Assembly: GCF_041886205.1 (NCBI RefSeq) | Contig: NZ_CP169029.1 | DNA: 64,000 bases | DNA from: Escherichia coli | Lineage (GTDB): Bacteria; Pseudomonadota; Gammaproteobacteria; Enterobacterales; Enterobacteriaceae | Reading direction: 5' to 3' (one strand) | In this document: positions 34,059 to 37,060 of the stretch, piece after piece | Position numbering within the stretch: the first letter of the stretch is position 1 | How the letters are laid out: each line of letters begins with the position of its first letter | Made by a program: the position numbers and the translations under genes | Notes under the pieces: generated by a model | Told to the model about the DNA's origin: nothing | The model's input: the letters and a program-made list of their open reading frames with translations, nothing else | Databases searched by the model: none

Positions 34059-35597
34059 ATGGCTTTTGCCTCATTAATTGAACGCCAGCGCATTCGCCTG
34101 CTGCTGGCGTTAGTATTCGGTGCCTGCGGAACGCTGGCCTTCTCTCCTTACGACGTCTGGCCTGCGGCGATTATTTCGTTGATGGGGCTTCAGGCGTTGA
34201 CCTTTAACCGCCGTCCACTCCAGTCTGCCGCTATTGGCTTTTGCTGGGGATTTGGCCTCTTTGGCAGCGGTATTAACTGGGTCTATGTCAGCATCGCGAC
34301 CTTTGGCGGAATGCCTGGCCCGGTTAACATCTTCCTGGTGGTGCTGCTGGCGGCGTATTTGTCGCTGTATACCGGACTGTTTGCTGGCGTGCTGTCGCGT
34401 CTGTGGCCGAAAACCACCTGGCTGCGCGTAGCGATTGCCGCCCCTGCCCTCTGGCAAGTGACCGAGTTTCTGCGCGGTTGGGTACTGACAGGCTTCCCAT
34501 GGTTACAGTTCGGCTATAGCCAGATTGATGGCCCGTTAAAAGGGCTGGCACCGCTAATGGGCGTGGAAGCCATTAACTTCCTACTGATGATGGTTAGCGG
34601 CCTGCTGGCACTGGCGTTGGTCAAACGCAACTGGCGTCCGCTGGCGGTAGCCGTCGTGCTGTTTGCCCTTCCCTTCCCGCTGCGTTACATCCAGTGGTTT
34701 ACCCCGCAACCGGAGAAAACCATTCAGGTTTCGATGGTTCAGGGCGATATTCCGCAATCGCTGAAATGGGACGAAGGCCAGCTTCTTAATACGCTGAAGA
34801 TTTACTACAACGCAACGGCACCGCTGATGGGCAAATCATCGTTGATTATCTGGCCAGAGTCGGCGATAACCGATCTGGAAATTAATCAGCAACCGTTCCT
34901 CAAAGCACTGGACGGTGAGTTGCGTGATAAAGGTAGCTCGCTGGTAACCGGGATTGTCGACGCGCGTCTCAATAAGCAGAACCGCTACGATACCTACAAC
35001 ACCATCATCACGCTGGGTAAAGGTGCACCGTACAGCTACGAATCAGCCGATCGCTATAACAAAAACCATCTGGTACCGTTTGGCGAGTTTGTCCCGCTGG
35101 AGTCGATTCTGCGTCCGTTAGCACCGTTCTTTGATCTGCCGATGTCGTCGTTCAGCCGTGGGCCATATATCCAGCCGCCGCTGTCGGCAAATGGTATTGA
35201 GCTTACTGCGGCTATTTGCTACGAGATCATTCTCGGCGAGCAAGTGCGCGATAACTTCCGCCCGGATACCGACTACCTGCTGACTATCTCCAACGATGCG
35301 TGGTTTGGTAAGTCTATTGGTCCATGGCAGCACTTCCAGATGGCGCGAATGCGTGCGCTGGAGCTGGCGCGCCCACTGTTGCGCAGCACCAACAACGGCA
35401 TTACGGCAGTGATTGGCCCGCAGGGTGAGATTCAGGCGATGATCCCGCAGTTCACCCGCGAGGTGTTGACCACTAATGTGACGCCAACCACCGGACTCAC
35501 ACCGTATGCACGTACCGGCAACTGGCCGCTGTGGGTGCTGACGGCGCTGTTTGGTTTTGCCGCTGTGTTGATGAGTCTGCGTCAGCGACGTAAATAA
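34059..35597 (+). CDS. lnt: apolipoprotein N-acyltransferase
   Basis: 512-aa [38 protein letters not shown]; multiple TM segments plus nitrilase-like domain. Confidence 0.95.
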
Positions 35598-35642
35598 TCC
35601 CTTCTTATCGTGCCGGAATACATCCCATATTTCGGCACGCTC

Positions 35643-35672
35643 ACCGGATGCGGCATCAGTGCATTATCCGGA
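35643..35672. repeat. REP-like palindromic unit
   Basis: CCGGATGCGGCATCAGTGCATTATCCGG. Confidence 0.55.
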
Positions 35673-35696
35673 TAACAATATTCTCCTATCCAACTT

Positions 35697-35712
35697 TGGC
35701 ACATCTATTGCT
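35697..35712 (+). promoter_or_regulatory. candidate sigma54 (-24/-12) promoter upstream of gltI
   Basis: TGGCAC-N5-TTGCT, exact match to the TGGCAC-N5-TTGCW consensus spacing, about 280 bp upstream of gltI ATG. Confidence 0.45.
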
Positions 35713-35993
35713 TTGTTATACAAGGCAAAGCTTGAACCAGCATCAGTACAACCCGGTTGCACCACAGCAATCCACCGGTAGCACCAAAAGAGTGCATTTT
35801 AAGAATTTTGCTTCGGAATGGTGCGGTGCACCTCGCAAAAACAAACAATAAAACATCAATATCTTTACATTTAGCCAAACTAAATGTTACCTAACAGGCA
35901 CAACACTGCACAATAAAGTTGCAGACAATAACAACACAAACACTCACAACGGGTATCCATGCGTTCTTAACGCAGAAGATAAAGGAGTTGGAT

Positions 35994-36902
35994 ATGCAAT
36001 TACGTAAAACTGCCACAGCAATCCTCGCCCTGGCGCTTTCCGCAGGACTGGCACAGGCAGATGACGCCGCCCCGGCAGCAGGCAGTACGCTGGACAAAAT
36101 CGCCAAAAACGGTGTGATTGTCGTCGGTCACCGTGAATCTTCAGTACCTTTCTCTTATTACGACAATCAGCAAAAAGTGGTGGGTTACTCGCAGGATTAC
36201 TCCAACGCCATTGTTGAAGCAGTGAAAAAGAAACTCAACAAACCGGACTTGCAGGTAAAACTGATTCCGATTACCTCACAAAACCGTATTCCACTGCTGC
36301 AAAACGGCACTTTCGATTTTGAATGTGGTTCTACCACCAACAACGTCGAACGCCAAAAACAGGCGGCTTTCTCTGATACTATTTTCGTGGTCGGTACGCG
36401 CCTGCTGACCAAAAAGGGCGGCGATATCAAAGATTTTGCCGACCTGAAAGGCAAAGCCGTAGTCGTCACTTCCGGCACTACTTCTGAAGTTTTGCTCAAC
36501 AAACTGAATGAAGAGCAAAAAATGAATATGCGCATCATTAGCGCCAAAGATCACGGTGACTCTTTCCGTACCCTGGAAAGCGGTCGTGCCGTTGCCTTTA
36601 TGATGGATGACGCTCTGCTGGCCGGTGAACGTGCGAAAGCGAAGAAACCAGACAACTGGGATATCGTCGGCAAGCCGCAGTCTCAGGAAGCCTACGGTTG
36701 CATGTTGCGTAAAGATGATCCGCAGTTCAAAAAGCTGATGGATGACACTATCGCTCAGGTGCAGACTTCCGGTGAAGCGGAAAAATGGTTTGATAAATGG
36801 TTCAAAAATCCAATTCCGCCGAAAAACCTGAACATGAATTTCGAACTGTCAGACGAAATGAAAGCACTGTTCAAAGAACCGAATGACAAAGCACTGAACT
36901 AA
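35994..36902 (+). CDS. gltI: glutamate/aspartate ABC transporter periplasmic binding protein
   Basis: 302-aa frame from MQLRKTATAILALALSAGLAQA (signal peptide) within track ORF 35919..36902. Confidence 0.95.
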   Translation: MQLRKTATAILALALSAGLAQADDAAPAAGSTLDKIAKNGVIVVGHRESSVPFSYYDNQQKVVGYSQDYSNAIVEAVKKKLNKPDLQVKLIPITSQNRIPLLQNGTFDFECGSTTNNVERQKQAAFSDTIFVVGTRLLTKKGGDIKDFADLKGKAVVVTSGTTSEVLLNKLNEEQKMNMRIISAKDHGDSFRTLESGRAVAFMMDDALLAGERAKAKKPDNWDIVGKPQSQEAYGCMLRKDDPQFKKLMDDTIAQVQTSGEAEKWFDKWFKNPIPPKNLNMNFELSDEMKALFKEPNDKALN

Positions 36903-37058
36903 TTACAAGAACCAGGGGCGGAAATTCTAGCCCTCTCGATTGTTACGTAGCACGGACAGACTATACGCCTGATGGTCGTTCCCCATCGGGCCTGAAAACC
37001 GCAATACGCTGGGTAACAATCTTCGAGGGTAGCAGTTAACGCTGCTACCCTCTTTTTT
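36903..37058 (+). ncRNA. sroC: SroC small RNA (processed from gltI-gltJ spacer)
   Basis: Position between gltI and gltJ with strong intrinsic terminator hairpin; boundaries approximate. Confidence 0.5.
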
Positions 37059-37060
37059 CT
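37025..37060 (+). terminator. rho-independent terminator in gltI-gltJ spacer
   Basis: GAGGGTAGCAG-TTAAC-GCTGCTACCCTC followed by TTTTTTCT. Confidence 0.85.

Follow-up and report, generated by a model that had tools for sequence, protein, structure and literature searches.

The sigma54/NtrC promoter of gltIJKL in Escherichia coli and a conserved array of NtrC-type sites in its leader

Described systems closest to the gltI promoter

The sigma54 promoter glnAp2 of Escherichia coli combines a -24/-12 element with several NtrC dyads that lie 60-120 bp from the promoter centre, lacks a conserved IHF site and shares its control region with a second, sigma70 promoter. All of these features recur in front of gltI, which heads gltI-sroC-gltJKL, the operon for the glutamate/aspartate transporter. 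At glnA, however, the NtrC sites lie upstream and overlap an upstream sigma70 promoter, whereas gltI reverses this order: the sigma54 promoter comes first, followed by NtrC-type sites in the transcribed leader and then by the sigma70 promoter. Activator sites downstream of a sigma54 start are known from other bacteria, namely the downstream activating sequence of Bacillus subtilis rocG (bound by RocR), which acts by looping from ~1.5 kb away, beyond the gene, and the ftr elements of Caulobacter (FlbD), which also act by looping. These systems involve other activators and other organisms, and the gltI sites fall within the first ~100 nt of the leader.

Within E. coli, glnHp2, glnK, nac, astC, rutA, ddpX and yhdW belong to the same regulon as gltI and share its motif types and its nitrogen-scavenging logic, several of them also preceding genes for periplasmic binding proteins. 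They differ from gltI in the side on which NtrC-type sites lie (upstream, as opposed to downstream at gltI), and leaders at other NtrC promoters measure 18-93 nt (Bonocora 2015, Table 1) as against ~270 nt at gltI.

The gltI promoter itself (gltIp, or ybeJ) has been described in both E. coli and Salmonella, with the same element as in the 64-kb stretch of DNA analysed here (the window); the Salmonella site differs by one base of the N5 segment. In K-12, sigma54 ChIP-seq identified it as site OS04, with the motif TTGGCACATCTATTGCT (FAT 21, PSSM 11.7; Bonocora 2015, Table 1), a 17-mer identical to positions 35696-35712 of the window. The same study flagged OS04 as an EcoCyc predicted promoter (not confirmed) and assigned it to insH3, because in K-12 an IS5 copy sits between OS04 and gltI; the window lacks this insertion, and its promoter is still joined to gltI. 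In Salmonella LT2, the orthologous sequence TGGCACGTCTATTGCTTT (STM0665) is a sigma54 ChIP-chip site with a PSSM score of 22.1 (Samuels 2013), and gSELEX detected binding of purified NtrC, as well as of RpoN holoenzyme, to the insH-lnt spacer of K-12 (Shimada 2021). Occupancy of the element by sigma54 is thus on record from ChIP-seq, ChIP-chip and gSELEX. NtrC binding to the region is likewise documented by gSELEX and by a ChIP-seq peak assigned to gltIJKL, for which the supporting reference given is 'gene expression analysis' (Brown 2014); individual sites are below the resolution of both methods.

Expression data point in the same direction. ybeJ (gltI) was one of a small number of genes whose expression fell upon loss of rpoN, by at least 2-fold in the deletion mutants of both CFT073 and EDL933 (Switzer 2022). 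gltIJKL was predicted to be an NtrC-dependent operon, and gltI rose 1.8-fold with the promiscuous activator DctD250 in Salmonella (Samuels 2013), so the sigma54 share may be modest next to that of the sigma70 promoter. Both a sigma70 and a sigma54 promoter were ascribed to gltIJKL by Miyakoshi 2022, who found that nitrogen limitation induced SroC, derived from the gltI mRNA, in Salmonella, O157 and O111. In K-12 the induction was marginal, for which they blamed the IS5 insertion. Nitrogen induction is documented by these SroC data and by the listing of Brown 2014. Positions 35697-35712 are, then, the documented sigma54/NtrC promoter of gltIJKL, which was already known and is not new.

Sequence, position and conservation of the element

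The element, designated TGGCACATCTATTGCT, matches all 11 specified positions of TGGCAC-N5-TTGCW, and its conserved doublets, GG at 35698-35699 and GC at 35710-35711, are 10 nt apart (Table 1). Neither strand of the window holds another exact copy of TGGCAC-N5-TTGCT, and the end of the element lies 282 nt before the gltI ATG. With a start predicted at ~35723-35724, the leader would measure ~270 nt. In dinucleotide-preserving shuffles of the window, the same string occurred at 0.06 matches per window, with at least one match in 6 of 100 shuffles. That the match exceeds chance is shown by conservation and by the published binding data, not by motif statistics.

These results bear out most of a preliminary description of the locus, made from the sequence alone, which had placed an exact sigma54 element at these coordinates ~280 nt before the gltI ATG, with a long leader, and had put its chance rate at about one per ten windows, in agreement with the shuffles. 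The gene order it assumed, with gltI and gltJKL downstream of the motif, agrees with the ORF list and the RefSeq annotation. Its suggestion of an NtrC-dependent promoter is supported by the published sigma54 and NtrC binding, rpoN dependence and nitrogen induction; the assay it proposed, gltI expression in rpoN mutants, turned out to be in print already, with the reduction in CFT073 and EDL933 cited above. The call was thus a correct rediscovery, in which a genuine sigma54 promoter was recognised from sequence alone.

Table 1. Features of the lnt-gltI region, in window coordinates
Feature	Position	Strand	Sequence or content	Basis or remark
lnt	34059-35597		upstream gene	ORF list, RefSeq annotation
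Sigma54 -24/-12 promoter element	35697-35712	+	TGGCAC-ATCTA-TTGCT	exact consensus, ChIP-seq identity, conservation
Variable spacer	35713-35757	+	predicted start and first ~35 nt of leader	sequence not conserved
NtrC-type site 1	35758-35774	.	TGCACCACAGCAATCCA; centre ~+43	left half strong, right half weak
NtrC-type site 2	35780-35796	.	AGCACCAAAAGAGTGCA; GCAC-N7-GTGCA, variable centre; centre ~+65	best conserved dyad
NtrC-type site 3	35809-35825	.	TGCTTCGGAATGGTGCG; centre ~+94	right half GGTGCGG invariant
A-rich tract	35833-35860	+	CGCAAAAACAAACAATAAAAC...	invariant TCGCAAA and AACA columns in alignment A1
Proximal sigma70-like promoter (putative)	35864-35893	+	-35 TTTACA 35864-35869; TG 35885-35886; weak -10 TACCTA 35888-35893	
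IS5D target	35891-35894	.	CTAA	K-12 junction sequences mapped onto the window
Fourth NtrC-like match	35907-35923	.	TGCACAATAAAGTTGCA	3 mismatches; ambiguous
C/A-rich block of gltI 5' UTR	35925-35950	+	GcvB sRNA target and translational enhancer	conserved in A1
Small stem-loop	35960-35974	+	TGCGTT-CTT-AACGCA	covariation across genera
gltI (ybeJ)	35994-36902	+	periplasmic glutamate/aspartate-binding protein	ORF list, RefSeq annotation of identical sequence
sroC	36898-37060		GcvB sponge sRNA	Rfam, 170.8 bits

Conservation was assessed by scanning one genome per species with GltI, which yielded 80 loci from ~30 genera of Enterobacteriaceae; the alignment built of the region, A1, covers 28 genera. 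Every one of these 80 other species carried the full consensus TGGCAY-N5-TTGCW on the gltI strand, at a distance of 287-365 nt (mostly 289-301 nt) from the ATG, so that, with the window included, the element faced gltI on the + strand in 81 of 81 sequences. The core positions were invariant in A1, while the N5 segment between them varied freely among the 80 species. A weaker sigma54-like string, TGGCGCGYCCGCTGCT, was found inside the lnt coding sequence of many genera, ~570-680 nt upstream of gltI (loci L008-L081); the most likely reason is that the coding sequence is conserved, and its counterpart in the window, TGGCGCGCCCACTGTT, lacks the GC doublet.

Within E. coli, three forms of the lnt-gltI spacer occur. 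The window type, which is 100% identical to that of strain 6EVA, is uninterrupted in 1,833 complete genomes, and the K-12 type is the window type with IS5D inserted at its CTAA target. In the third type, found in 3,207 genomes, lnt and gltI are separated by a gene of ~1.9 kb for a rhomboid-family protease, which runs on the other strand and is frameshifted in O104:H4. Homology between the window type and the third type starts only at ~35749, downstream of the sigma54 motif, and the breakpoint thus falls between the motif and the NtrC-type sites described below. Yet the third haplotype carries TGGCATGTAAGTTGCT between unrelated flanks, and the spacing to the conserved block is the same (58 vs 59 nt). 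As the -24/-12 element is kept at the same distance within otherwise unrelated sequence, the element itself is evidently under selection.

Nothing upstream of the motif was conserved in A1 (28 genera); that region is occupied by lnt terminator hairpins, by REP-like elements or, in the third haplotype, by another gene. In the window, the lnt stop is followed by a hairpin with an 11-bp stem at 35609-35639, which has no T-run, and 3' of it by a REP-like palindrome at 35644-35671. On the - strand, 35612-35673 match the REP-derived naRNA4 of Rfam below threshold, with 21.9 bits where the gathering score is 59.5.

NtrC-type sites and other elements of the leader

We scanned the 81 sequences, including 300 bp upstream of the motif, for matches to TGCACCANNNTGGTGCA with up to 4 mismatches. 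The matches piled up at three positions, +61/62, +83/84 and +112/113 from the motif start, corresponding to three conserved dyads of the TGCACC-N5-GGTGCA type in cis. In the window they span 35758-35825, which is ~+35 to +102 relative to the predicted start and 45-115 bp 3' of the motif. By contrast, the 300 bp upstream of the motif held almost no such matches in the 81 sequences, and none that recurred, including at -70 to -150, where enhancers typically lie. The preliminary description had looked to the 100-200 bp upstream of the promoter for NtrC half-sites; there were none, and the conserved sites proved to lie on the other side, downstream. An upstream enhancer is nevertheless a typical and not a strictly defining feature of such promoters, because NtrC enhancers reportedly work independently of their position.

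The three sites are not equally strong. Site 2 occupied the equivalent position in 81 of 81 sequences, with both half-sites invariant in A1, and is one of only six matches with up to 3 mismatches in the 64-kb window, two of which fall in the 397-bp lnt-gltI spacer. Sites 1 and 3 each have 4 mismatches in E. coli; the left-half GCAC of site 1 was invariant in A1, and a match to this site within 4 mismatches was present in about 40 of the 81 loci. Matches with up to 4 mismatches have a background of 0.625 per kb. Across the array, A1 showed invariant half-sites (GCAC...GTGCA) around variable centres, the pattern characteristic of a dyad bound by a protein. This downstream layout was kept in all 81 Enterobacteriaceae sequences. 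Site 3 is followed by a small palindrome, GGTGCGGTGCACC, at 35819-35831.

As a positive control, the same scan was run on ten classical NtrC/sigma54 promoters of K-12. It found the glnAp2 sites at exactly -140 and -108 and returned upstream sites at eight of the ten promoters (glnA, glnH, nac, astC, rutA, yhdW, glnK and ddpX); at yeaG and argT it detected no NtrC-type sites. nac gave one 4-mismatch match at +123, consistent with the background rate, and gltI was the only scanned promoter with all of its sites downstream. Measured from the promoter centre, the array sites lie 61, 83 and 112 bp away, which is normal for NtrC enhancers; the side alone is unusual.

Between the motif and the array, the spacer is longer by ~12, 23, 31-32 or 35 bp in Atlantibacter, Cedecea, Buttiauxella and some Enterobacter (loci L054, L059-L061, L064, L065, L068, L070, L075, L077 and L082-L084). 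These insertions are near whole helical turns and might reflect face-of-helix constraints, but the independent events are too few, and the increments of +12, +23, +31 and +35 bp fit whole turns only loosely, so helical phasing was not adopted. An IHF site was also considered and discarded, as only 13 of the 81 loci, with E. coli not among them, had WATCAR-N4-TTR (with up to 1 mismatch) at a shared offset. Neither feature favours a particular loop geometry. A fourth NtrC-like match, closer to gltI, is ambiguous: it doubles as a CTGCA...TGCAG inverted repeat, was present in 18 of the 81 loci and is kept in Escherichia, Salmonella and some Citrobacter but not in other genera; in the Enterobacter group another hairpin, CTCGC...GCGAG, takes its place.

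We also considered whether the array could serve a second sigma54 promoter nearer to gltI, an arrangement that would restore the canonical geometry. The candidate in the window, AGGCACAACACTGCAC at ~35897, has GG-N9-GC spacing. In the final 200 nt, GG-N10-GC is missing from 65 of the 81 loci and poorly matched in the rest; K-12 sigma54 ChIP-seq shows no peak adjoining gltI. Given these counts, the array does not belong to another sigma54 promoter. The published ChIP-seq peak was likewise set aside as a means of placing NtrC, since the peaks are given as 80-bp bins (Brown 2014). At glnK, glnH and rutA, too, these bins fall on the sigma54 motif, and hence they do not tell on which side NtrC binds.

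Downstream of the array, the A-rich tract may serve the proximal promoter as an UP-like element or reflect intrinsic curvature. The stretch that follows it probably represents the proximal sigma70 promoter named in the literature, to judge by its conservation: TTTACA and, 15 nt later, TG.TA.C.A (35885-35893) were invariant in A1. A generic sigma70 scan of the lnt-gltI spacer called no promoter on the + strand, and a mapped start for the putative proximal promoter did not turn up in the literature. Within the same stretch lies a perfect 8-bp inverted repeat, ACATTTAG-N5-CTAAATGT, and the stretch may be a sigma70 promoter alone or also an operator for some regulator. The CTAA target duplication of IS5D lies inside the putative -10, so that the insertion in K-12 cut gltI off from the sigma54 promoter, the NtrC array and the TTTACA box, and with the last from most of the proximal promoter.

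Nearer to the gene, the role of the C/A-rich block as GcvB target and translational enhancer was described for Salmonella gltI (Miyakoshi 2015, citing Sharma 2007). The small stem-loop behind it lies 9 nt upstream of the Shine-Dalgarno sequence AGGAG (35983-35987); 86% of cells were paired, as compared with 21-48% in slid controls, and four of its six pairs had changed on both sides. It may affect the stability of the 5' UTR or access to the ribosome-binding site. A structured leader or attenuator was considered and rejected, as the fold was unremarkable (z = -1.67) and the + strand of the spacer held no terminator-like site. With the RNA not unusually structured, the length of the leader is explained by DNA-level elements and not by an RNA fold.

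A model of nitrogen control at gltI and its alternatives

Very probably, this region comprises the sigma54-dependent, NtrC-activated promoter of gltI-sroC-gltJKL, with the three dyads downstream as its putative enhancer. Published work shows sigma54 holoenzyme at 35697-35712, NtrC on the spacer, and a gltI that requires rpoN and, where IS5 is absent, answers to nitrogen limitation. The holoenzyme binds as a closed complex, which phosphorylated NtrC activates when nitrogen is limiting, and transcription from the predicted start at ~35723 runs through a ~270-nt leader into gltI. The array, to go by its sequence, would be the enhancer: NtrC-P bound to the three dyads would loop back from the transcribed side to the closed complex, and on its way into gltI-sroC-gltJKL the polymerase would then cross both the enhancer and the sigma70 promoter. 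The proximal sigma70-type promoter would supply basal expression, and in K-12 the IS5 insertion disconnects the whole nitrogen-responsive module from gltI. More speculatively, passage through bound NtrC could limit the maximal output. The leader would thus be long because it holds the enhancer, the A-rich tract, the proximal sigma70 promoter and the GcvB-targeted 5' UTR. On this model, and rather more tentatively, gltIJKL may be the one natural enterobacterial NtrC/sigma54 promoter with its enhancer inside its own leader (+35 to +102). The searchable literature held no prior description of a downstream NtrC layout at gltI, key older reviews being beyond reach.

The principal alternative accepts the sigma54 promoter and concerns the function of the array, which, instead of being the enhancer, might modulate the sigma70 promoter or act as a brake or roadblock on sigma54 transcripts, with activation coming from NtrC bound elsewhere or in solution. 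The array does lie between the two promoters, ~75-135 bp upstream of the proximal one, and NtrC sites at glnA have the additional role of repressing a sigma70 promoter. Moreover, the classical E. coli sites that we recovered were all upstream, bar the 4-mismatch match at nac, so a downstream enhancer would be exceptional. We nonetheless regard this alternative as unlikely: upstream of the motif nothing is conserved over 28 genera, no site within 4 mismatches recurs, and the DNA is wholly replaced between E. coli haplotypes. Simple occlusion is unlikely too, as the array is clear of the proximal -35 and -10.

It is far less probable still that the element binds sigma54 unproductively and that gltI responds to nitrogen indirectly, for instance through Nac or the SroC/GcvB circuit. 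Many sigma54 sites indeed show no detectable transcription (Bonocora 2015), DctD250 raised gltI by no more than 1.8-fold in Salmonella, and our literature search found no mapped transcript start at ~35723-35724 for gltI. An unproductive site, however, fits poorly with the reduced gltI expression in rpoN mutants of two pathotypes, with the binding of NtrC next to the element, with the orientation and position kept in 81 of 81 sequences and, in K-12, with the drop of the nitrogen response to a marginal level when IS5 separates the module from gltI. Finally, a chance match without function, although expected in ~6% of windows of this size, is refuted by the conservation of the element in 80 of 80 other species next to a variable spacer and by sigma54 occupancy in vivo in two species, and its probability is negligible.

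The sigma54 promoter of gltI bears on SroC as well. The window carries a full-length sroC, whose sRNA is processed from the 3' end of gltI and acts as a sponge for GcvB, and nitrogen-dependent SroC production should follow from the gltI sigma54 promoter. In strains free of IS5, this promoter drives gltI and therefore SroC, which ties nitrogen status to the GcvB regulon. K-12, with IS5D between the sigma54 module and gltI, is accordingly ill suited as a model of how nitrogen controls gltI and SroC, and annotation based on K-12 hides the gltI sigma54 promoter under insH3.

The layout with a downstream enhancer is the only part of these findings that is possibly new. If it holds true, each activated polymerase must cross the very NtrC oligomer that activated it, so the promoter could be self-limiting, and the nitrogen module would stay attached to gltI while the DNA upstream is freely replaced. 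If confirmed, gltIJKL would provide a natural enterobacterial system for studying a sigma54 polymerase that meets its own activator in its path.
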